Shown here: positions 54,020-64,000 of the stretch, piece after piece
Layout of the letters: each line of letters begins with the position of its first letter
Numbering within the stretch: the stretch's first letter is position 1
NCBI GenBank assembly: GCA_963796475.1
Contig: CAWCLY010000003.1
Coordinates: 80,922 to 144,921 of the forward strand
DNA from: an uncultured delta proteobacterium
GTDB taxonomy: Bacteria > Myxococcota > Myxococcia > Myxococcales > Myxococcaceae
DNA length: 64,000 nt
Direction of reading: 5' to 3'
Made by a program: the position numbers and the translations under genes
Notes under the pieces: model-generated
The model's database searches: none
Told to the model about the DNA's origin: nothing
What the model saw: only the letters and a program-made list of their open reading frames with translations

Positions 54020-54303
54020 GGATCCACCCTCCGAGCGCCCCCTGCTCCGGGCTGCGGGCGGTGGTTTCAGCACGCTGTGGCGAGGACTTGGAACCACACT
54101 CGCTGCAAAGAGCGTCGCTCCCGCTTCAAATGGCGCGGTGCATGATGGTGACGCCACCGGGTGGTCCCGGATCCGGGACCGCGACCGGTCATCGGCGCGC
54201 TGCGGCAACGGCGAGCGCCAGCGCGGGGGACTGGCGTGAGGAGCACCACCCTGCGCAGCGCGCTCACTGGAATCCGGCGGTGAGCGCGGGCAAAGTCCGC
54301 GCC

Positions 54304-54648
54304 ATGTCCGATTGCGTGTTCTGCAAGATCCGGGACGGAGAGATTCCCGCCCGGCTCGTGATGCGTGACGACCGGTGCATCGCCTTCGACGACATCAACC
54401 CGCAGGCGCCGGTCCACGTGCTCTTCGTCCCGCTGCAGCACATCCCCGCCAACACCGCGCTCACCGCGGAGGACCGCGAGCTGATCGGCCACCTGGTCCT
54501 CGCGGCCGGCCGGGTGGCGATGGAGCGAAGGATCGCTGGCTCGGGCTACCGCCTGGTGATGAACAGCGGGCCTGACGCGTGCCAGCAGGTCTTCCATCTT
54601 CACCTGCACCTCCTGGGCGGCAAGCAGCTCCGCGGCCCGATGGGCTAG
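54304..54648 (+). CDS. HIT-family (histidine triad) nucleotide hydrolase
   Basis: MSDCVFCKIRDGEIPA...VFHLHLHLLGG. Confidence 0.9.
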   Translation: MSDCVFCKIRDGEIPARLVMRDDRCIAFDDINPQAPVHVLFVPLQHIPANTALTAEDRELIGHLVLAAGRVAMERRIAGSGYRLVMNSGPDACQQVFHLHLHLLGGKQLRGPMG

Positions 54649-54817
54649 TCCCCGGTGATGTCATTGCTTTGCATCAGGTGATGCCAGCCACTTGAATTTC
54701 CAGGGGCCCACTCATGCCAAGTGGCTGGAAATACACGGCTTCGGCTTGGCGACGTCCTTGCTTCGGGCAACAGGCCTGACTGCCCCGGCGCCGCCGGAGC
54801 CAGCAAAGGAAGAGACC

Positions 54818-55279
54818 ATGGCCCCCCCAGAAGCTGCGACGTCCTGGACCAACGGCAGCGCAGTCGCCCGTGGCACGGACGCGCGACGCTCCCTGCGCGA
54901 GGCCGGACTCCGGGTCACCGAGCAACGGCTCCGGGTCTTCGAGGCGCTCCAGAAGTCGGCCCGGCCCATGAGCCACCCCGAGATGGTGGCCCTGCTTCCA
55001 CAGGACGGGATGGACCGGACCACGGTCTACCGGATCCTCATGGACCTCACCGAGCGCGGGCTCGCGCACCGGCGCGACCTGGGTGACCACGTGTGGCGCT
55101 TCGACCTGCGCGGTCCCGATGCCCGCCGGCATGAGCAGAACCACCCCCACTTCAGCTGCACCGAGTGCGGAGCGCTGGAGTGTCTCCCGGTGGACGCGGT
55201 GACCCTATCGCCGGCGCTCGCCGCACGCTCGACCGCGGAGATCCACGTCCGCGGGCGCTGCGCGCGCTGCGCCAGCTAG
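54818..55279 (+). CDS. Fur-family metalloregulator (Zur/PerR/Fur-like)
   Basis: ATG 54818 after AAAGGAAGAG. LRVTEQRLRVFEAL...TVYRILMDLTERGL winged helix. CxxC pairs in FSCTECGALEC and RGRCARC. Confidence 0.85.
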   Translation: MAPPEAATSWTNGSAVARGTDARRSLREAGLRVTEQRLRVFEALQKSARPMSHPEMVALLPQDGMDRTTVYRILMDLTERGLAHRRDLGDHVWRFDLRGPDARRHEQNHPHFSCTECGALECLPVDAVTLSPALAARSTAEIHVRGRCARCAS

Positions 55280-55370: not shown

Positions 55371-55859
55371 ATGGGAACGATGCACCGTTGGATCTGGGTG
55401 TGCGCCGCCGCCACCGTCGCGGCTTGTGACCAGTACAGCGACCCTCCCGCCACGCGGGACGTCGTGCCGCTGACGACCCGCTCCCAGGAGATGGCCTGGT
55501 CCGGCATCGACTACGGCGGCACTGGCCACGGACGTGACCAGCGCAACGGCACCGCTGGCGTCAACTCGGACATGAATGACACCCAGGACACGGATGTCGC
55601 GCGCGTTGCGGACCCGGGCGCTCCTGCCGGCACTGGTATCTTCGGCCCGGGCACGGGCATCACCGAGTCGGCGCCTGGACGGGGCTCGACGCAGCCGTCG
55701 GCCGACCTGGACGAGCCCGAGATGCGCAACGCCCAGCGGGGCGGCCGGGTGTACCGCCCGAGCGACCACTACTTCGTCAACGGCGTCGACATGGGGCCGA
55801 GCTGGGATGCAGCCCCCGGGACAGGCGGCCCGGAGAAGATGAAGACGAAGCAGCCGTAG
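55371..55859 (+). CDS. hypothetical lipoprotein, low-complexity Gly/Asp/Thr-rich
   Basis: MGTMHRWIWVCAAATVAAC lipobox. No recognisable family. Confidence 0.45.
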   Translation: MGTMHRWIWVCAAATVAACDQYSDPPATRDVVPLTTRSQEMAWSGIDYGGTGHGRDQRNGTAGVNSDMNDTQDTDVARVADPGAPAGTGIFGPGTGITESAPGRGSTQPSADLDEPEMRNAQRGGRVYRPSDHYFVNGVDMGPSWDAAPGTGGPEKMKTKQP

Positions 55860-55877
55860 CCAACGCCCCCGGGCTGC

Positions 55878-56673
55878 TCATCCGCGGATGGGGAAGCGGA
55901 CCTCCACGGTGTAGCAGCCCGGCGCTGGCGGCAGCGGCAGGGCGCCCGGGACGACGCAGTCCCTGGCCGCGCGGTCGAGCTGGTCCGAGCCGGTGGTCCC
56001 GAGCAGACCCACCCCGCTCGGCATCCCGGACGCATCCAGGCAGAAGTGGAGCGGCACCCCGGGCACCCCATGCCGGGCGAGCCGCACGGCGGCGGCCGGA
56101 GCGCAGCGCGCCGCCGACCACGCCAGACGCCGCTGCAGCGTCTCGAGGAGCGATGCCGCGCCGGAGGCCCCTGCCCCGCTGGAGCCGCCCACGCCGCTGC
56201 CGTTGGCGTCGCTCGGCGCCCCCGTCCCTCCAGCGCTGCCGGGAGCGCTGGCCGCCGTGCCGCTGCCCGAGGCGTGCGGTCCGGACGGGCGCTGGAGCCC
56301 CGAGCACCCACAGGTCGTCCTGCACCGCCGCCAGGCCGGCCAGCACGGGCGGCGACTGTCCGGGTCGCTCGCCAGCGGGTGGCGCCTCGTCGTGAGCGGT
56401 GCCGCGACGGGACGCGCGCGCCGGCGGCTGGGCCGGCGACGGATGCGTCGGCGCCACTCGGTCGACAGCTCCGGTCCCCCCGGCGCCCGGTTCGCCGTCG
56501 ATCGCCTGAGCCGTCGGCCCCGGACCGGCGGCGGTGCCCGGAACGAGCGACACGCGCAGGGGCGGCGGCGGGGGGGCAGCGGGCGCATGGGCCAGGGTGA
56601 GCACCGTCGCCAGCCCCAGGAGATGGACCCCGGCCGAGGCGCCCAGCGCGCGGGAGAGGCGCGGCGCGCTCAC
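55878..56673 (-). pseudogene. TonB-family energy-transducer-like protein (last gene of the B12 uptake operon), at least 1 frameshift (~56280)
   Basis: GTG 56673 overlaps the ATPase stop (GTGA). Anchor GVHLLGLATVLTLA and a Pro-rich linker. C-terminal domain in ORF 55878..56588 (...GVPGVPLHFCLDASGMPSGVGLL..SDQLDRAARDCV...YTVEVRFPI). Confidence 0.55.
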
Positions 56674-57461
56674 GGCCGTCCTCGCGGGGCGAAGAGGCGG
56701 TGCCCGGCCTCGGTGCGCGCCTCGGCGAGCCCGAGTCCGTAGAGCCGTCCGAGCCGATCGGCATCGAGCAGCTCGGAGGCCGACCCCTGGCCGAGCACCC
56801 GCCCGTCCCGGAGCAGGAGCACCGCGTCGGCGAAGGCGGCGGCGAGGTTCGGGTCGTGGAGCACGGCGACGGCCGCGAGCCCACCCCGGACCCGCGCGCG
56901 CACGCGCTCGAGCACCTGGGCCTGGTGCTGCAGGTCGAGGAACGCGGTGGGCTCGTCGAGCAGGAGCAGGTCGGGCTCCTGGGCGAGCGCGCGCGCGACC
57001 AGCAGGAGCCGCCGCTCGCCGCCGGACAGGCGCGAGACGACGCGGCCCGCGAGGTGGGAGATGCCCAGCTCGGCCAGCACCGCCCGCGCCACGGCGAGGT
57101 CTCTCTGACCGGGGAGACCCCAGCCGCCCTGGTGAGGCGACCGCCCCATCAGCGCCAGCTCCAGCCCGGTGAAGCCCGACTCCCCGTCGAACGTCTGCGG
57201 CACCCAGGCCACCTTGCGGGCGAGCCCGCGACGCTCCCAGCGCTCGAGCGGTGTGCCGAAGAGGGACGCAGCGACCCGGCGAGCGGCGGCACGAGCCCGA
57301 GCACCGTGCGCAGCAGGGTGCTCTTTCCCGCGCCGTTCGGGCCGAGCACCGCCCAGAGCGTCCCCGGCGCGACGTCGAGCGACAGCTCGGAGACGACCGC
57401 GACAGCGGCCGTAGCCCACCGACAGCGCGGAGGTCTCGAGCGCCGCGGGCCGGGTGCTCAC
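56670..57461 (-). pseudogene. btuD: ABC transporter ATP-binding protein, BtuD/FepC-type, frameshifted
   Basis: [18 protein letters not shown].... Walker [13 protein letters not shown] appears only in ORF 57149..57349. LSGGERRLLLVARAL and LLLLDEPTAFLD read in the frame of ORF 56670..58493. Confidence 0.8.
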
Positions 57462-58493
57462 GTCGGCGTGCTCCCGCCGCGAGAGCAGCCAGACGAAGAG
57501 CGGTCCACCGAGCACCGCGGTCACCACGCCCACCGGGGGCTCGGCGTGGAACACCCCGAAGAGCATCCGCGTCCGCGCGTCGGCCAGCACCAGGAACGCG
57601 GCGCCGCCGAGCGCGCTCGCCGGGACGAGCAGCCGCTGGTCCGGACCGAGCCAGAGCCGCAGGAGCGTGGGGGACGATGAGTCCCACGAAGCCCACCAGC
57701 CCCGCGAGCGCCACCGCCGCGGCGACGCTGAGCGAGGTGGCGAGCGAGGACGATGGCGCGGGTGCGGCGGACCGGCACACCGAGCGAGGCGGCCTCGTCG
57801 TCCCCGAGCGAGAGGAGGTTGAGCCGCGCCGACTCGGCCCACAGCACGCCGAGCGCGAGCAGCTGGAGCGCGCCGCCGATGAGCAGCGTCCTGGGCCGCT
57901 CGTACCCGAGGTTCCCGGCCAGCCAGTACAGCACCTCGCCCAGCCGGTCCGGGCGTGAGCAGCGTCTTGATGCAGGTGATGACCGCGGCGGCGAAGGCGT
58001 TGAACACCACGCCGGTGAGGAGCGCGGCGTAGGGAGAGCTGCGGGCCCGACCCGCCGCCAGCACCAGCGTCATCGCCGCCACCGCGCCCACGAAGGCGAA
58101 GAGCGACGGACCGGCCAGCGCCTGCAGCCCGAGCGCCAGGGCCAGCGTCGCTCCGAGCGCGGCGCCGCCCGAGACGCCGAGCACGAAGGGATCGGCCAGG
58201 GGGTTCTGCAGCAGGGACTGGAGCGCGCTGCCGCTCGCCGCGAGCGAGGCGCCTACCATCGCCCCGAGGAGCGCCCGGGGGATGCGCAGGCCGAAGAGCA
58301 CCCGGGCGTCCGCGGAGCCTGGCTCGGTGAGCGCGCGCCCGAGGTCCACCGGGTACTCGCCCAGGAGCACCGAGCCAGCCAGGGCGGCCACGGCGAGGAG
58401 GAGCAGCCCGCCGAGCACGAGCGCCGCCCGAGCCGGCGTGAACCGCACCGACACGAGCCCGCCGGCCGCGTCCTGGAGCGCCACCGTCGTCAC
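57458..58493 (-). pseudogene. btuC: FecCD/BtuC-type ABC permease, at least 4 frameshifts
   Basis: GTG 58493 overlaps the btuF stop. ...LRIPRALLGAMVGASLAASGSALQSLLQNPLADPFVLGVSGGA.... The middle of the protein is spread over ORFs 57521..57934 and 55777..57780. The 3' end is not resolvable because no in-frame stop precedes the ATPase start. Confidence 0.75.
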
Positions 58494-59323
58494 GGGGTGG
58501 CCTCCGGGTGGACGAGACGGAACAGCTCCTCGAGCCCGCGGCCGAGCGCCGGTCCCGGGTGGAGGAGCGACTGGTCAGACAGCAACGCCCAGCGCGCCTC
58601 GCGCAGCCCGGGCAGCTCCCGGAGCCGGTCCTTGCCCGCCATTCGAGCAGCGGCGTCGAGGATGAGCTCCGGCCGGCGCTTCAGGGCGTGCTCCAGCGAG
58701 TACACCGGGTAGGGGCTGGCCGCGTCGGAGGCCACGTTCACTGCGCCCGCGTCGGCCAGCAGCTCGTCGGCAAAGCCTCCCGGCCCGGCGACGACCAGGG
58801 GATCGAAGCCGTAGACCAGCAGCACGCGGACCGGGCGCTCCGTCCGGGCTCGCTCCCGGATGCGCGCGCGGGTCGACTCGAGCGCCCGCGCCAGCGCCTC
58901 GCCCTGCGCGGTCCGCCCCAGCGCCCTTCCCACCGCGCGCTCGGCGGCGAGGACGTCCGCCACGGTCCCGAGCGGGAGGAGGAGCACCGGCGCGCCGAGC
59001 CCGGCCATCGCCTCGACCGCGCGGCGATTCCCCGGCCCGGGCTGGGCGAGCACGAGGTCCGGGTGGAGCGCCATCACCGCCTCCACGCTCGGGTCGACGA
59101 AGCCCCCAACCCGATGGAGCCGCGCCACCTCCGGCCGCTCGTCGAAACGGGAGACGCCCACCAGCCGCTCTCCGGCGCCGAGGGCGAGGACCACGTCGGT
59201 CAGCGACGGCGCGAGCGTCACCACCCGGCGCACCTCCCCTGCTGGCGCAGGCCCGAGCAGCCGGATGGGACCCGGGTCCGCTCCGGCGCCGAGCACCGCG
59301 GCGCAGAGGAGGGCGGAGATCAC
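58490..59323 (-). CDS. btuF: periplasmic cobalamin/siderophore-type binding protein (Peripla_BP_2), BtuF-like
   Basis: ...RRVVTLAPSLTDVVLALGAGERLVGVSRFDERPEVARLHRVGGFVDPSVEAVMALHPDLVLA... Intact 277 aa. GTGA overlaps at both ends. Confidence 0.8.
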   Translation of the reverse strand: MISALLCAAVLGAGADPGPIRLLGPAPAGEVRRVVTLAPSLTDVVLALGAGERLVGVSRFDERPEVARLHRVGGFVDPSVEAVMALHPDLVLAQPGPGNRRAVEAMAGLGAPVLLLPLGTVADVLAAERAVGRALGRTAQGEALARALESTRARIRERARTERPVRVLLVYGFDPLVVAGPGGFADELLADAGAVNVASDAASPYPVYSLEHALKRRPELILDAAARMAGKDRLRELPGLREARWALLSDQSLLHPGPALGRGLEELFRLVHPEATP

Positions 59324-60879
59324 GGCGCGGGTACCACCGTGAGGTCACTGATGTAGGAGGGGCAGATGGTCGGCGGGGTGAGGCCGTTCACGTAGCCAAC
59401 CCGTTCCACGAACCCGTTGGTCGTGTAGTCCACCACGTACAGCCGGGCGGCGGTCTCGTCGGCGACGTAGACGCTGGTGTTCTGCGGCACTGCGCGGCCC
59501 ACGCTGGGGGGCTGCGCAGCGGGAAGAGAGCTCGGGGTCCAGAGGCCGATGGGCTTGTCCTTCGCATCGAGGAGCAGCAGCGCGGTGTTGGCCACCGAGG
59601 TGACCTGGTACGTGCTGTCGTAGCTGCGCGCGCCGGCGCAGCTCACGAGCATCGGCGTGGTTCCGGCTCCGAGGGGCATGGAGGCGAGCCACTCGACGTT
59701 CTGGCAGCCGATGCCTGCGTCGGCGAGCCCGGCAACCGCCGTGACCGCTGCCTGGCCCGACGCGCTCGGGTCGATCTTCACCACCAGCGGCGGCCCGTAG
59801 TCGGCCCCGGGTCGGTCGCCGTAGTAGCGGAGCACGTTGGCCGCCACGTAGACGTACCCGTTCCGGGCGATGGCCTGGGTGGGCGAGGCGATGAACGGGC
59901 CGCCGTCGGGCGCCACGCCTCCACCCGGGAGCGCGGCCACCAGGGGCGCCAGCTCGTAGGTGGCCAGGAACTGCGCGCTCGCTGGGTTGCTCACGTTCAC
60001 CCGGATCACCTGTCCGGTGCCGTTGAGCGGAACGAAGAGGTCATTGCCGATCGCCGCAAAGGGCTCGGGGAAGCTTCCGGCGTCGAACCCCACACCGCCG
60101 GCGGTCACCAGACCGAGCGACCCGGCGCCGGTCGGCCCGAGCAGCGTTCCGGCGTCCAGCGCGGGTGGACCGTTGAAGATGCGGATCGCATTGACGAAGG
60201 AATTCGTGGCGTAGAGCAGCGTCCCTCCCGCGACGGGAGCGATGTACAGCTGGCTGGTGCCGGCATTGCTGCCGCCCGACGTGCCCACGAGCGGAGGACG
60301 GGTGGCGCTGGCGCTGCCCAGGCTGCCGACCGGGATCTCGAACAGGCTCGCGCTGTCGTCGTCGGCGTACAGCAGGACCGAGCCCAGGACGCCGAGCGCG
60401 TCGGGGAACGAGGCCCCCGGCGGATTCGCCGCCGCGTCCAAGAGCAGCCCCCCCGGCACGTCGTGGATCTTCTGCAGGTAGCCGCCCGGGGCGGCGATGC
60501 AGCCGGCCACGAGCGCCGTCCGGCAGCCTCCGGACCCGCAGTCCTCGCACACACCCTGGTTGCAGGCCTGGCCGCTGCCACAGGTGTAGCCGCAGGAACC
60601 GCAGTTCCTCGGGTCGGTCGCCATGGCGGTGCAGATGCCGTTGCAGACCTGCTGTCCCACCGGACAGACACAGCCGCCGGCGACACAGACGTTTCCGCCG
60701 TTGCAGGCCGAGCCGCACGAGCCACAGTTGTTGTTGTCGGTCTGGGTCGCGACGCAGGTGTCGGCGCACTTCTCGAGACCGGCGATGCACTGGAGCTCGC
60801 TGGAGGTCAGGCAGCCTGGGAGCACGGCAGCGGCGGCGAGGAGGAGGGCGGCCAGGGCCGCGCGGGGAGACGACGTCAT
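59320..60879 (-). CDS. uncharacterised lipoprotein: two Cys-rich NCGSCGxxC modules + ~400-aa beta-propeller-like domain
   Basis: ATGA overlap with the receptor stop. MTSSPRAALAALLLAAAAVLPGC lipobox. DNNNCGSCGSACNGGNVCVAGGCVC and DPRNCGSCGYTCGSGQACNQGVCEDC modules. Later repeats LLYATNSFVNAIRIF, LFVPLNGTGQVIRVN and VYVADETAARLYVVDY. Intact 519 aa. Confidence 0.8.
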   Translation of the reverse strand: MTSSPRAALAALLLAAAAVLPGCLTSSELQCIAGLEKCADTCVATQTDNNNCGSCGSACNGGNVCVAGGCVCPVGQQVCNGICTAMATDPRNCGSCGYTCGSGQACNQGVCEDCGSGGCRTALVAGCIAAPGGYLQKIHDVPGGLLLDAAANPPGASFPDALGVLGSVLLYADDDSASLFEIPVGSLGSASATRPPLVGTSGGSNAGTSQLYIAPVAGGTLLYATNSFVNAIRIFNGPPALDAGTLLGPTGAGSLGLVTAGGVGFDAGSFPEPFAAIGNDLFVPLNGTGQVIRVNVSNPASAQFLATYELAPLVAALPGGGVAPDGGPFIASPTQAIARNGYVYVAANVLRYYGDRPGADYGPPLVVKIDPSASGQAAVTAVAGLADAGIGCQNVEWLASMPLGAGTTPMLVSCAGARSYDSTYQVTSVANTALLLLDAKDKPIGLWTPSSLPAAQPPSVGRAVPQNTSVYVADETAARLYVVDYTTNGFVERVGYVNGLTPPTICPSYISDLTVVPAP

Positions 60880-62825
60880 GGAGAGACCTCGGGTGTGGAG
60901 GGCTGAGCGCTCGACCGGGGGTGCGGCAGGTCGAGGCGGAACGTGAGGGTGGCGAAGAAGGCCCGGCCGGGCAGTGGGTAGGCGTCGAAGTCCCGCGTCT
61001 GGACGTCGCCGATGTTGGTTGCGGTGAACGAGGCGACGAGCTCGGGTCGCCGGAGGACGAGCACGTCCACCCCGGCGTCGAACAGCGCCCGGCCCTGGAT
61101 GGCGAGAAACTCGGTGTTCAATCGATTCACGTACATCAGCGACTGGGCGCGCATCGTCGCCCGGAGCCGGACCCGCTCCGGACCGGCGAGGATCCGCAGG
61201 AATCCCCGCTGGCGCGGCCGGAAGGGCACTTCCTTGCCGTAGTACGGCTGGATGTCGCGGATGTTCTGGGTGAAGAGCAGCGTGTAGCTCCCGCTCAGCT
61301 CCACCCAGGGCGCCGGAGAGAGCCGACCCTCGAGCTCCATCCCTGCCGCCCGCACCGCCCCGGTGTTGCGTGGCCTGGCGGGGAGCGGCGGCTGGTACTC
61401 GTAGATGATGAGGTTCTCGTACTGCGCGGCGAAGCCCGCCACCCGGAGCAGTCCGAGCGAACCCGAGAGACCCGCCCCCGCGTCGACGAAGACGCCTCGC
61501 TCCGGCTGGAGGTCCGGATTGGCGAGCGTGTTCCCGCTCGGGATGTACAGCTCCACGAACGAGGGCACCCGGAACGACTGACCGGCGTTGGCCTGCAGCA
61601 CCACGCCCGGGGGCAGCGACCAGGAGACGCCGAGCTTCGGCGACAGCCCGACGAAGGGGCCCGCCTGGTCGAGCCGGAGGGAAGGGACGATGGAGACGCG
61701 GTCCTGGGCGAGCCTCCAGTCGTCCTGGATGGACACGGAGGTGACGACCCATCTGGGCGCGTTCGTCCCCGCGTCGGCGAAGGACAGCCCCACCGAGGCG
61801 GAGGCCGACAGCCAGTGGTGGCCGAGCGGAAGCGTTCCGTCCCAGGAGAGCGCGGCCTGCCACCACCGGGTGTCCTCGGAGAAGAAGCCTCCCCGGAAGG
61901 TGTTGGTCTCGCGCCGGGTGTCGAGCCGGAGCGAGGTCTCCGCCCCCGAGCCGAAGGCGCGCGACATCCGCAGATCGGCCTGGAGCGCGAGGAAGTCCTG
62001 GTGGGCGTCCGCAGAGGGCGCATCCACCGTGCCCGCCAGGCCCCGGGAGACCGAGTTGACCAGGACCAGGCCGTCGATGCGCCACGCGCCGACGAAGCCG
62101 CCGGCCTTGGCCAGCCCCCCCACCCAGGTGGACTGGTTGTTCTGGCGAACGACGGTCTGCGGGCTGCTGGCCGGAGTGCCGGCGAGCGGGTCGTAGGTGT
62201 AGGTGAAGTCGCCGTTGGTGTGGCCGGCACTCGCCGAGAGCAGGCCCGTTCCGCCGAGCGCCGGGCCGGACACGCTGGCGCTGCCCTGGAGGGTGCCGAA
62301 GCTGCCGTAGGTCAGGTCGCCGGCGAGGGCGGGCTCGGCACCGTTCGGGGTGGCGAGGTTCACCACTCCTCCGAGCGCGCCGGCGCCATAGCGGGCGCTC
62401 GCCCCGCCGCGAAGGATCTCGGCGCGCTGCACGACCGGGAGCGGGACGAGGCTCAGGTCGGCGATGCCACCGAGGCCGTTGAGCGGCACGCCGTCCAGCA
62501 GGACCAGGACGCCGGTGCTCGAGGCGCCCCGGAGGGTGAGCTGCTCGCTCTGGCCGAGGCCGCCGCTCTGCTGCAGCTGGACGCCCGGAGCCTCGCTGAC
62601 CAGCGTCCCCAGCGTGGAGACGTCGGTCCGGCGCGAGGAGACGTCCACCACGGTGGTCAGGGCCGTCGGGTCACGGACCAGGGGCGACTCGGGCGGAGGG
62701 GGGGCCGCCGGCACCGGCACGTCGACCGGGGGCAGCTCGACCGCGGCCGGGGACTGCCCCCAGGCGATCGACGCCACGCTCAGTGCCGGACCGAGACAGG
62801 CCCGGGCGAAACGCCATCCGCCCAT
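60876..62825 (-). CDS. btuB: TonB-dependent outer-membrane receptor, BtuB-like (cobalamin-riboswitch controlled)
   Basis: Signal peptide. Plug domain (...LRGASSTGVLVLLDGVPLNG...RAEILRGGASARYGAGALGGVVN). 22-strand-type barrel ending ...RAFFATLTFRL plus a short tail. Intact 649 aa. Confidence 0.85.
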   Translation of the reverse strand: MGGWRFARACLGPALSVASIAWGQSPAAVELPPVDVPVPAAPPPPESPLVRDPTALTTVVDVSSRRTDVSTLGTLVSEAPGVQLQQSGGLGQSEQLTLRGASSTGVLVLLDGVPLNGLGGIADLSLVPLPVVQRAEILRGGASARYGAGALGGVVNLATPNGAEPALAGDLTYGSFGTLQGSASVSGPALGGTGLLSASAGHTNGDFTYTYDPLAGTPASSPQTVVRQNNQSTWVGGLAKAGGFVGAWRIDGLVLVNSVSRGLAGTVDAPSADAHQDFLALQADLRMSRAFGSGAETSLRLDTRRETNTFRGGFFSEDTRWWQAALSWDGTLPLGHHWLSASASVGLSFADAGTNAPRWVVTSVSIQDDWRLAQDRVSIVPSLRLDQAGPFVGLSPKLGVSWSLPPGVVLQANAGQSFRVPSFVELYIPSGNTLANPDLQPERGVFVDAGAGLSGSLGLLRVAGFAAQYENLIIYEYQPPLPARPRNTGAVRAAGMELEGRLSPAPWVELSGSYTLLFTQNIRDIQPYYGKEVPFRPRQRGFLRILAGPERVRLRATMRAQSLMYVNRLNTEFLAIQGRALFDAGVDVLVLRRPELVASFTATNIGDVQTRDFDAYPLPGRAFFATLTFRLDLPHPRSSAQPSTPEVSP

Positions 62826-62890
62826 CGTCCGCCTTCCGCTCTCTTCTCCGAAGAGAGAAAGGCCAGCTGCGGCGACGGGGGCTCCGGCGC

Positions 62891-63125
62891 CGCACCCTCG
62901 GGCAGGTCTCCTGGCTCACGGATCAGCGACGCAGGCGGCGCCCCGATGGCGCCTTCTCGTCCGGGTTCGTCCTCCCACCTTCCCACGGACCGACCGTCCG
63001 CAGTGGCGACCGATGGAGGATGTCGAACCGGCCCGGTTCCTCGGGCCGCTCCGTTCACAGTGGCGGGACCGCGCCGGACTCTCACCGGCTTCCCTGTTGG
63101 GCCCGACATGGGCACCCGGGGGCAA
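62891..63125 (-). promoter_or_regulatory. cobalamin (AdoCbl) riboswitch in the 5' leader of the btuB-like operon
   Basis: The minus strand reads ...ggtgcccatgtcgggcccAACAGGGAAGCCGGTGAGAGTCCGGCGCGGTCCCGCCACTGTgaacgg...GCCACTGcggacggtcggtccgtGGGAAGGtggg...gtgAGCCAGGAGACCTGCCcgag. This gives the conserved core, the GCCACUG/GGGAAG pair and the B12 box. A downstream hairpin ctctcttcggagaagagag (62839-62857) abuts the RBS GGAAGG. Confidence 0.9.
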
Positions 63126-63205
63126 ACCGCTGTGTGGCACAGCGGCCGCCCGCCGCGCAAGCGGCAGGCAGGGGGTCCGCGGACCCGGCGGCTCGACCCT
63201 CCGCC

Positions 63206-64000
63206 TCACCAGACCTTGCACACCTTCTCGGCTGGCTTGGTCATGGGCTGCCCCGGCTTGCAGGAGAAGGCCGCGCCGAACTCGGGCATGTTCACCACCA
63301 GGCCGTTCACCCGGTAGCGCGGAGGCGAGTGGGGGTCGGTGCGCGCGAGGAGCCGCTCCGTCTCCGGCCGCATGTTGGTGCAGGCCCACTGCGCGTTCCC
63401 CACGAAGAAGCGCTGCTCGGGGGTGAGCCCGTCGATGGGCGCGAGCCGCTCCGCGGCGGTGGCCGCCTTCCACGCCCGGTAGGCGAGGATGAGCCCGCCG
63501 AGGTCCGCCACGTCCTCTCCGATGGTGAGCTTGCCGTTCACGTGGACGTCGTCCACGGCGATGTAGCTCGAGAACTGCTCGGAGATGCAGGCGGTTCGCC
63601 TGCTGAACTCCGCCGCGTCCTCCTGGGTCCACCAGTCCTTGAGGTTCCCCTTGGCGTCGTACTGGCGGCCCTCGTCGTCGAAGCCGTGGGTGAGCTCGTG
63701 TCCGATGGTTCCCCCGGTGTTCCCGTAGCCTGGCGCCGCGTCAATCTTCGGGTCGAACAGCGGCGGCTGGAGGATGCCGGCCGGGAAGTTCATGCCGTTC
63801 ATCGAGGGGTTGTAGTAGGCGTTGACCGACTGCGGTGTCATCTCCCACTCGCCGCGGTCCGCCGGCTTGCCAATCCGCCCGAGCTGCCGGGCGGTCTCGA
63901 AGCGCATCGATCGGGCGACGTTCCCCCGGAAGTCGTCGGCGGCGAGCTCGATCGCGCCGTAGTCCCGCCACTTGTCGGGGTAGCCGATGTTGTTGGCCAT
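63206..64000 (-). CDS. M13-family (neprilysin/PepO-like) zinc metallopeptidase, C-terminal part; the 5' end lies beyond the window
   Basis: ...GGTIGHELTHGFDDEGRQYD (HExxH)...GEDVADLGG...NMPEFGAAFSC...KVW. The frame is open to nt 64000. Confidence 0.9.
   Translation of the reverse strand: MANNIGYPDKWRDYGAIELAADDFRGNVARSMRFETARQLGRIGKPADRGEWEMTPQSVNAYYNPSMNGMNFPAGILQPPLFDPKIDAAPGYGNTGGTIGHELTHGFDDEGRQYDAKGNLKDWWTQEDAAEFSRRTACISEQFSSYIAVDDVHVNGKLTIGEDVADLGGLILAYRAWKAATAAERLAPIDGLTPEQRFFVGNAQWACTNMRPETERLLARTDPHSPPRYRVNGLVVNMPEFGAAFSCKPGQPMTKPAEKVCKVW

Follow-up and report, generated by a model that had tools for sequence, protein, structure and literature searches.

What is the role of a protein of 519 amino acids (aa) whose gene lies between those of a BtuB-like outer-membrane receptor and a BtuF-like binding protein, in an operon led by a cobalamin riboswitch? 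This arrangement was found in a 64,000-nucleotide (nt) stretch of DNA from an uncultured Myxococcaceae bacterium (contig CAWCLY010000003.1; here called the window, whose coordinates are used throughout), and the protein is referred to as X. Most microbes require vitamin B12 but few can make it, so that the means of its capture shape microbial communities. On balance, we favour the view that X is an outer-membrane corrinoid-binding partner of the BtuB-like receptor, similar in action to BtuG of Bacteroides while standing outside the BtuG family; the narrower proposal, in which X sits exposed on the cell surface as a lid over the receptor, is put forward more tentatively. The argument for a corrinoid-binding partner draws on the strict pairing of receptor and X over deep divergence, on the B12-responsive control of the operon, and on the precedent of the Bacteroides lipoproteins. 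BtuG is the only known outer-membrane capture partner of BtuB and has been called exclusive to Bacteroidetes (PMC6143338). A sequence-unrelated propeller lipoprotein tied to a riboswitch-controlled btuB in the Myxococcaceae and their kin would show the same design in soil predators.

The gene of X is an unbroken open reading frame (ORF) of 519 codons plus stop on the reverse strand (59320-60879), as reported in the initial annotation and seen again in our translation of the window. Its ATG (60879-60877), which has GAGG about 10 nt on its 5' side, shares the sequence ATGA (60876-60879, ccATGAcg) with the TGA of the 649-aa receptor gene upstream, and its TGA (59322-59320) shares GTGA (59320-59323, cGTGAtc) with the GTG of the 277-aa BtuF-like gene downstream; both overlaps had been described before and were found in the sequence. 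Overlaps of 4 nt join every coding sequence from the receptor through btuC. A search with the C-terminal 401 aa returned 66 close relatives that align collinearly with X (47-94% identity, full coverage, nearly all of 515-530 aa), and their consensus start, MTxSxRAAL...LLPGC, agrees with the ATG at 60879. The nearest orthologue lies in a Myxococcaceae metagenome-assembled genome (MAG), isolate Chersky_276 (locus L008), with 93% identical DNA; the ratio of nonsynonymous to synonymous substitution rates (dN/dS) between the two is 0.13, and X is under purifying selection. The homologues, this ratio and the confident fold rule out X as a chance ORF of GC-rich DNA.

Linkage of X to the receptor and the cobalamin riboswitch

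The gene order of the operon is riboswitch, BtuB-like receptor, X, BtuF-like protein, BtuC/D-like genes and a possible TonB. The elements closest to X are as follows.

62884-63134, reverse strand: cobalamin riboswitch aptamer, the operon leader (RF00174, Rfam scan)
60876-62825, reverse strand: BtuB-like TonB-dependent outer-membrane receptor, 649 aa (Plug and TonB_dep_Rec_b-barrel domains)
58490-59323, reverse strand: BtuF-like periplasmic binding protein, 277 aa, GTG start (Peripla_BP_2 domain)

The riboswitch is complete, covering the full RF00174 model (1-189) with 56.4 bits (gathering threshold 31.5; E 2.5e-11), and is the sole Rfam match in the whole window. It lies 58 nt upstream of the receptor start and is 99% identical to that of L008. 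A consensus scan of 55500-63500 gave no promoter-like site and one terminator-like match (61888-61900), which lies inside the receptor gene and is no more than shuffled controls give.

We found that a BtuB-like receptor gene stands directly upstream of X, on the same strand, in all 25 loci checked by tblastn or gene calls, and that RF00174 stands directly upstream of the receptor in 24 of 25 loci, the window included. Two further contigs begin inside or just before X, so that the upstream gene is not visible, and are outside the 25; one more adjacency (P0116) comes from gene calls alone. The riboswitch match and the btuB-X-btuF-btuC-btuD order thus agree with the earlier statement that X belongs to a riboswitch-led operon, and the linkage of homologues to btuB and the riboswitch, which that annotation had named as a check, extends to the related loci. 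The single locus with no riboswitch match, L009 (7650-8057), retains the last 96 nt of the leader, while its aptamer is replaced by unrelated DNA lying in an opposite-strand ORF, which could reflect rearrangement or misassembly in that MAG. With its aptamer replaced, L009 counts as the one exception.

The adjacency of receptor and X spans relatives from 94% to about 26% identity and is kept despite other flanks. For example, thiC lies upstream and TonB_C downstream in L091, and an amidase gene lies upstream and a histidine kinase gene downstream in L092; P0204 and P0212, which are remote members of the family (profile E about 1e-38 and 1e-32), have the same operon type among quite different flanking genes. 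BtuF follows X directly in most loci. In Corallococcus and Myxococcus stipitatus, BtuF and FecCD are missing from the locus, and X is followed by a second riboswitch and unrelated genes. As the pair persists where BtuF and FecCD are lost or replaced, the conserved unit is the receptor together with X. Within the operon, identity to relatives is 61-67% for X, 74-78% for the receptor, 80-85% for BtuF and 86-90% for BtuC; X is the fastest-evolving member, which fits an exposed binding protein, as a soft argument.

The distribution of the family was examined in a scan of one genome per GTDB species. One relative of 94% identity and several of 63-68% were found, all in uncultured Myxococcaceae-type MAGs, together with full-length relatives at 27-30% in four species of Corallococcus, an Archangium MAG and other Myxococcaceae. 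A protein search from a Corallococcus propeller added Pyxidicoccus, Myxococcus (stipitatus, faecalis and others) and Cystobacter. These relatives are named “MXAN_6577-like cysteine-rich protein” or “lipoprotein” in the databases.

The cargo of the operon was considered from the receptor, the binding protein and the riboswitch. The best NCBIfam match of the receptor is TIGR01779 (TonB-B12), below cutoff, and its best sequence relative in the PDB is E. coli BtuB (E 2e-23), followed by the next receptor at 3e-16; YncD is also among its PDB relatives. The best NCBIfam match of the binding protein is NF002894 (BtuF), again below cutoff, and its PDB relatives (E 1e-23 to 1e-19) comprise a haem-binding protein, which is the best, and BtuF. 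The receptor, BtuF and BtuC all fall under the NCBIfam equivalog cutoffs for Btu proteins. Because the receptor is closest to BtuB, the binding protein is akin to BtuF and haem binders, both carriers of tetrapyrroles, and a cobalamin riboswitch leads the operon, the cargo is most likely a corrinoid, as judged from sequence.

Lipobox, Stig1-like stalk and predicted propeller of X

X is divided into three parts.

60811-60879, reverse strand: signal peptide and lipobox, aa 1-23 (...AAVLPG-C; motif reading, conserved in relatives)
60526-60810, reverse strand: Cys-rich Stig1-like stalk, aa 24-118, with 17 Cys (Stig1 PF04885)
59323-60525, reverse strand: predicted seven-bladed beta-propeller domain, aa 119-519, proposed as the corrinoid-binding module (AlphaFold2, Foldseek)

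The N-terminus of X is MTSSPRAALAALLLAAAAVLPG followed by C, the predicted lipid-attachment residue Cys23. Its layout, MTSSPR-AALAALLLAAAAV-LPG-C, has the positive n-region, the hydrophobic h-region and the lipobox with Cys expected of a bacterial lipoprotein. A lipobox-like motif, mostly L[PTA]GC, is present in 161 of 169 full-length relatives according to a loose pattern rather than a dedicated predictor, and the lipoprotein signal proposed for X is therefore a family feature. Pro at position -2 is unusual in general, yet LPGC is the commonest box in this family (40 of the 161, followed by LTGC with 28 and LAGC with 19). In M. xanthus, Lys at +2 after the lipobox Cys marks lipoproteins of the inner membrane and Ala at +7 those of the matrix (PMC3222651). 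Among these relatives, Lys at +2 occurs in none and Ala at +7 in only 4, which argues against both inner-membrane retention and matrix export. By default, X is thus read as a probable lipoprotein of the outer membrane, in either leaflet.

The stalk matches Stig1 PF04885 in two stretches (E 1.8e-9; 38.4 bits against a gathering threshold of 24.1), in line with the Stig1-like Cys-rich modules noted at the outset. Pfam scans, which covered X at E <= 0.1 and all 52 members of a family alignment (A1) at E <= 1, gave Stig1, matched in 51 of the 52 members, plus a few chance repeat matches and nothing else. Against NF041328 (MXAN_6577-like cysteine-rich protein), X scores 72.5 bits and stays below the cutoff of 100, while the Corallococcus coralloides orthologue passes with 164.5 bits. 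The stalk varies, from relatives with no detectable Stig1 repeat to those with several, whereas lipobox and propeller are constant. NF041328 and Stig1 describe the module of this stalk, and RefSeq names the Corallococcus and Myxococcus orthologues after NF041328. Such a name covers only the first ~145 aa and is silent on the propeller and the B12 context; many Myxococcota proteins of the MXAN_6577/Stig1 type consist of the repeats alone, with no detectable propeller. We found no publication on this myxobacterial protein in literature searches, of incomplete coverage, for BtuG outside Bacteroidota, MXAN_6577 and myxobacterial Stig1. A functional name would replace the uninformative “MXAN_6577-like cysteine-rich protein”.

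The C-terminal domain of about 400 aa is confidently predicted to be a seven-bladed beta-propeller. With the family alignment, AlphaFold2 gave an all-beta model of full-length X with a predicted local distance difference test score (pLDDT) of 86 and a predicted template modelling score (pTM) of 0.83, and a propeller-only model with pLDDT 87 and pTM 0.90. No Pfam or NCBIfam family matches the propeller of X (nor, for Pfam, those of the A1 members), and phmmer and profile searches against PDB sequences gave no relative. The initial annotation had seen a propeller of the YVTN type: the propeller stood, but the YVTN family did not, since TIGR02276 reaches 13.6 bits (E 0.048) over one stretch of 25 residues, below its cutoff of 27.85. 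PF16819, the family of BtuG, was absent from the matches of X and of the A1 members, as expected from the claim that X has no sequence kinship to BtuG.

The propeller of X is acidic (isoelectric point, pI, 4.36), as are all propellers of the family examined (pI 4.1-5.4). The members examined have 0-3 His per propeller domain, none of them conserved. In an alignment of propellers from both subfamilies (A2), five Cys of the propeller are invariant, and the other invariant residues are mostly Gly, Pro and hydrophobic; the few polar ones, D474, R479 and E492, lie in what look like ordinary blade strands of a propeller. The conserved columns of A2 contain no obvious catalytic or metal-binding residue set.

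Foldseek searches of the PDB matched both models of X to seven-bladed propellers at 10-13% identity. For the full-length model, the top matches were the lactonase-like 3scy, AztD (rank 3), the muconate-lactonising enzyme 1jof and NirF, with about ten BtuG entries within the top 50. For the propeller-only model, 1jof (3-carboxy-cis,cis-muconate lactonising enzyme) ranked first, BtuG1/2/3 (3dsm, 8okv, 8bmx_D, 8ptf) took ranks 2, 4, 5, 7, 8 and 9, putative 6-phosphogluconolactonases also ranked high, and AztD (ranks 15-47) and BamB (rank 19) followed. The BtuG proteins align with E of about 4e-8 to 1e-6, template modelling (TM) scores of 0.48-0.56 by query and 0.56-0.64 by target, and 11-13% identity; the highest query-normalised TM-score, 0.56, belongs to a BtuG2-B12 complex in the propeller-only search. 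A TM-score of 0.5-0.56 indicates a shared general fold of the models and nothing more specific. In the fold comparison proposed in the initial annotation, BtuG is thus among the best matches of the propeller-only model (six of the top nine) but does no better than other seven-bladed propellers.

More distant relatives were collected by an exhaustive search of 1.84 billion representatives with the A2 profile, which gave 101 proteins at E <= 1e-30 and 280 at E <= 1e-10. Ten of the more distant listed matches were scanned, and the Stig1-plus-propeller layout was found again in most. The weaker matches are other Stig1-propeller proteins, with faint similarity to SGL, NHL or Vgb-lyase, and giant repeat proteins. 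One protein of the same propeller type, P0218 (L093 8001-10004; 667 aa; A2 profile E 6.5e-28), also carries Listeria-Bacteroides repeat, Big_2 and type IX secretion system (T9SS) sorting domains, and its gene neighbour encodes a giant MBG_2/YDG adhesin-like protein, btu genes being absent from the surroundings. As this is a T9SS-secreted protein without btu neighbours, the propeller type is not in itself tied to B12; the tie belongs to the lipoprotein family.

Proposed corrinoid capture and its rivals

BtuG was represented in our comparison by Pfam PF16819 (DUF5074) and by BtuG1/2/3 of B. thetaiotaomicron (PDB 3DSM, 8BMX, 8BAI, 8OKV). PF16819 is the propeller family of B12 loci (PMC13398666). 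Like X, BtuG is a lipoprotein with an acidic seven-bladed beta-propeller (the fold being predicted for X), and its gene directly follows btuB under the control of a cobalamin riboswitch (PMC6143338, PMC10404256). Unlike X, it has a short linker in place of the disulfide-rich Stig1-like stalk of ~95 aa between anchor and propeller, and the two have no detectable sequence kinship, with 11-13% identity in structural alignments. The Bacteroidetes-specific export signal of BtuG, MKWD after the Cys (PMC6143338), is also missing from X, whose mature N-terminus, CLTSSELQC, is unlike it. BtuG and X come from different phyla, and B12 binding and a lid role would be assigned to X by analogy only. X therefore appears to resemble BtuG in each checkable respect except sequence family and export signal, and because the PF16819 test fails and the export signal is absent, X is not to be filed in the BtuG family. 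BtuG was reported to have no homologues outside Bacteroidetes, and Wexler et al. ask why other Gram-negative phyla lack it (PMC6143338).

Two other known systems bear comparison. AztD, the zinc chaperone of AztABC (PDB 6N01, 6CMK, 6CK1), is like X a propeller with a high fold rank and is encoded with an ATP-binding cassette (ABC) importer, whose binding protein it serves. However, AztD is soluble, without lipid anchor, link to a TonB-dependent receptor or sequence match to X, and its cargo is a metal, zinc being bound through His, while conserved His residues and a metal site are both missing from X. The seven-bladed propeller YncE of E. coli is encoded beside the TonB-dependent receptor YncD, in an arrangement like that of X and its receptor. 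YncE is a soluble, iron-regulated periplasmic protein of unknown function, outside a B12 locus. One relative of X is labelled “beta-propeller fold protein YncE” by its source database, and no YncE structure appeared in the Foldseek top 50 of either model of X.

In the mechanism that we propose, the riboswitch would permit expression of the operon when cellular B12 is low, which is the established behaviour of cobalamin riboswitches. X would be made in step with the receptor, through a coupling suggested by the observed ATGA overlap. After export and lipidation at Cys23 it would reach the outer membrane, as its lipobox and the lack of a Myxococcus inner-membrane signal suggest, and the disulfide-knotted Stig1-like stalk would hold the acidic propeller of predicted seven-bladed fold. 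There, the propeller would bind corrinoids and feed the receptor, and import would go on via BtuF and BtuCD. By analogy with BtuG, we infer physical contact of X with the receptor, corrinoid binding at the propeller and hand-over to the receptor. Since M. xanthus depends on an external supply of B12, a capture device would be plausible.

The precedent comes from Bacteroides, where the accessory lipoproteins BtuG, BtuH and BtuJ of B12 loci bind B12 (PMC6143338, PMC8941943, PMC13398666). BtuG is a seven-bladed propeller that caps BtuB (PMC6143338, PMC10404256), and it binds B12 in a central cavity at a negatively charged face (PMC10404256), with which the acidic propellers of the X family would be compatible. 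The earlier proposal of a corrinoid-handling lipoprotein analogous to BtuG is thus borne out for the locus, the lipobox and the propeller, while the likeness of fold is compatible with it but not diagnostic.

Several points weigh against this explanation. Corrinoid binding by X is a proposal by analogy, and no sequence link joins X to PF16819. The predicted fold match to BtuG is generic, being equaled by the lactonising enzyme, lactonase-like proteins and AztD, and the distant sequence neighbours of X lean weakly to SGL, NHL and Vgb-lyase propellers. The loci belong without exception to a single order-level lineage, and many share flanking synteny (DUF4175 and HHH_3 upstream, Fur and HIT downstream); the count of 24 of 25 does not amount to 24 independent events, because much of it reflects vertical inheritance of one old locus. 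The btuC and btuD genes of the window contain frameshifts (described below), and should they prove genuine, this copy of the system may be unable to import B12. To our knowledge, Myxococcota have no equivalent of the surface-export signal of Bacteroidota, and for this reason surface exposure of X is a conjecture.

The broader idea, that a surface-exposed B12-capture lid for BtuB arose within the Myxococcota, independently or out of a propeller that has diverged past recognition, is less likely than not. If true, X would be a lipid-anchored, disulfide-stalked propeller on the receptor that scavenges corrinoids with very high affinity, and B12-dependent soil predators could draw on the B12 of prey and of competitors. 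In that case two phyla would have converged on the BtuB-BtuG principle, hitherto credited to Bacteroidota alone, and a route for lipoprotein exposure on the myxobacterial surface would be implied, for which a surface-exposed X would offer a handle. X provides a concrete protein for such work in cultured species, e.g., Corallococcus coralloides and Myxococcus stipitatus.

Other roles for X were weighed against that of a corrinoid-binding receptor partner. The position of its gene, exactly between those of the receptor and BtuF and overlapping both, would suit a periplasmic relay that takes corrinoid from the receptor and passes it to BtuF, as AztD serves AztC; the propeller protein AztD, which works as a chaperone in the periplasm, also ranks with the best fold matches, and the lack of a known surface-export signal in Myxococcota points the same way. 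We consider this unlikely, as X is still paired with the receptor in the Corallococcus and M. stipitatus loci, which have no BtuF, and E. coli-type systems manage without a relay. Its rapid evolution is also more typical of an exposed protein than of a go-between fitting two conserved partners, and P0218, of the same propeller type, is secreted to the outside of the cell. A receptor partner that binds no ligand, and instead serves folding, stability, gating or as a shield against BtuB-using phages or bacteriocins, is improbable: B12-responsive control would be needless for a pure assembly factor, the conserved acidity of the propeller suits a cationic corrinoid, and several accessory lipoproteins of the Bacteroides loci bind B12 (PMC6143338, PMC8941943, PMC13398666). 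The strict adjacency, the fast evolution of X, the absence of an identified ligand site on it, and the fold match to BamB, a propeller lipoprotein that aids barrel assembly, would nonetheless agree with such a partner.

An enzymatic role would have X act as a lactonase-, lyase- or cycloisomerase-type enzyme that modifies corrinoids, or frees B12 from prey proteins or carriers, before uptake. The top Foldseek match is indeed the muconate lactonising enzyme, putative 6-phosphogluconolactonases rank high, and distant Stig1-propeller relatives weakly match SGL and Vgb_lyase, but the structural identities are just 10-13%, no enzyme family matches at E <= 1, and neither the mostly structural-looking invariant residues nor the 0-3 unconserved His offer an obvious catalytic or metal-binding set, which makes this role very improbable. 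Least probable of all is a B12-controlled system whose cargo is no corrinoid but, for example, a cobalt chelate or a different tetrapyrrole, with X as the metallochaperone or binder of that cargo. This would account for the sub-cutoff NCBIfam scores of the receptor, BtuF and BtuC, for the haem-binding protein as best PDB relative of the binding protein, and for the AztD-like fold of X; however, E. coli BtuB is by far the closest solved relative of the receptor, BtuF is the best NCBIfam match of the binding protein, the riboswitch is kept in all but one of the loci, and the propeller has no conserved His or Cys-His metal site. The enzyme and metallochaperone roles were both set aside as unlikely for want of conserved His and of a metal-binding or catalytic set.

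Downstream genes and further observations

The operon continues downstream of the BtuF-like gene with the following elements.

56670-58493, reverse strand: btuC-like permease and btuD-like ATPase genes, one ORF of 607 aa in the window (partial FecCD and ABC_tran matches)
55878-56588, reverse strand: possible TonB-family protein, the last operon gene, 236-aa ORF as listed (weak tonB_Cterm match, E 0.0037)

Compared with the intact genes of L008, btuC in the window has single-base insertions at 57950, 57744 and 57665, and btuD has single-base insertions at 57464, 57452 and 57400 as well as 2 nt at 57264. The coding information of btuC is split across three frames, the Walker A motif of btuD (~57343) is out of frame, and FecCD and ABC_tran match only in parts of the ORF; the region reads as a single ORF only because the wrong frames, being GC-rich, lack stops. 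Indels of this kind relative to L008 are absent from the receptor gene, X and btuF. The frameshifts are either pseudogene lesions or assembly errors, with no effect on X itself. In three related loci (L001, L003, L006), the last operon gene encodes 264-275 aa without a Pfam match and overlaps the ATPase gene by 4 nt.

The flanks of the window (54061-55279, forward strand, and 63206-64000, reverse strand), read from translations only, contain a HIT-family ORF, a Fur-like regulator ORF and an M13-type peptidase ORF with a HELTH motif that runs past the window end. PF01230 HIT, PF01475 FUR and Peptidase_M13 are found on the matching sides in related loci; as these hold the same families on the same sides, the whole neighbourhood is conserved. 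Two contigs of one MAG (MFD05942.bin.1.218; L010 and L015) each carry receptor, X and BtuF, with X about 67% identical to that of the window; in one contig the locus lies close to the start, in the other at the end. A genuine duplication, strain variation or an assembly split in two could each explain the pair.

Other proteins with the Stig1 module were examined for hints on cellular location. Ten such Myxococcota proteins were scanned and showed Stig1 repeats only, with no detectable propeller, and gave no such hint. Many proteins of 700-1300 aa from Myxococcota and Polyangiales contain up to about 12 Stig1-like repeats (L024-L087; e.g., L041 10001-13123 and L048 10001-12760) and form a large, apparently undescribed class of disulfide-rich repeat proteins without other recognisable domain.

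The loci of Corallococcus and Myxococcus stipitatus have two or three successive cobalamin riboswitches. The additional copies (L019 11573-11796 and 14607-14766; L088 9831-10045; also in L017, L020 and L023) precede genes of unknown function: one for a protein of 497-559 aa without family match, one for a lipoprotein weakly like the LIC_13355 family and, in M. stipitatus, one for a small Rieske protein. These genes may encode further uncharacterised B12-related proteins.

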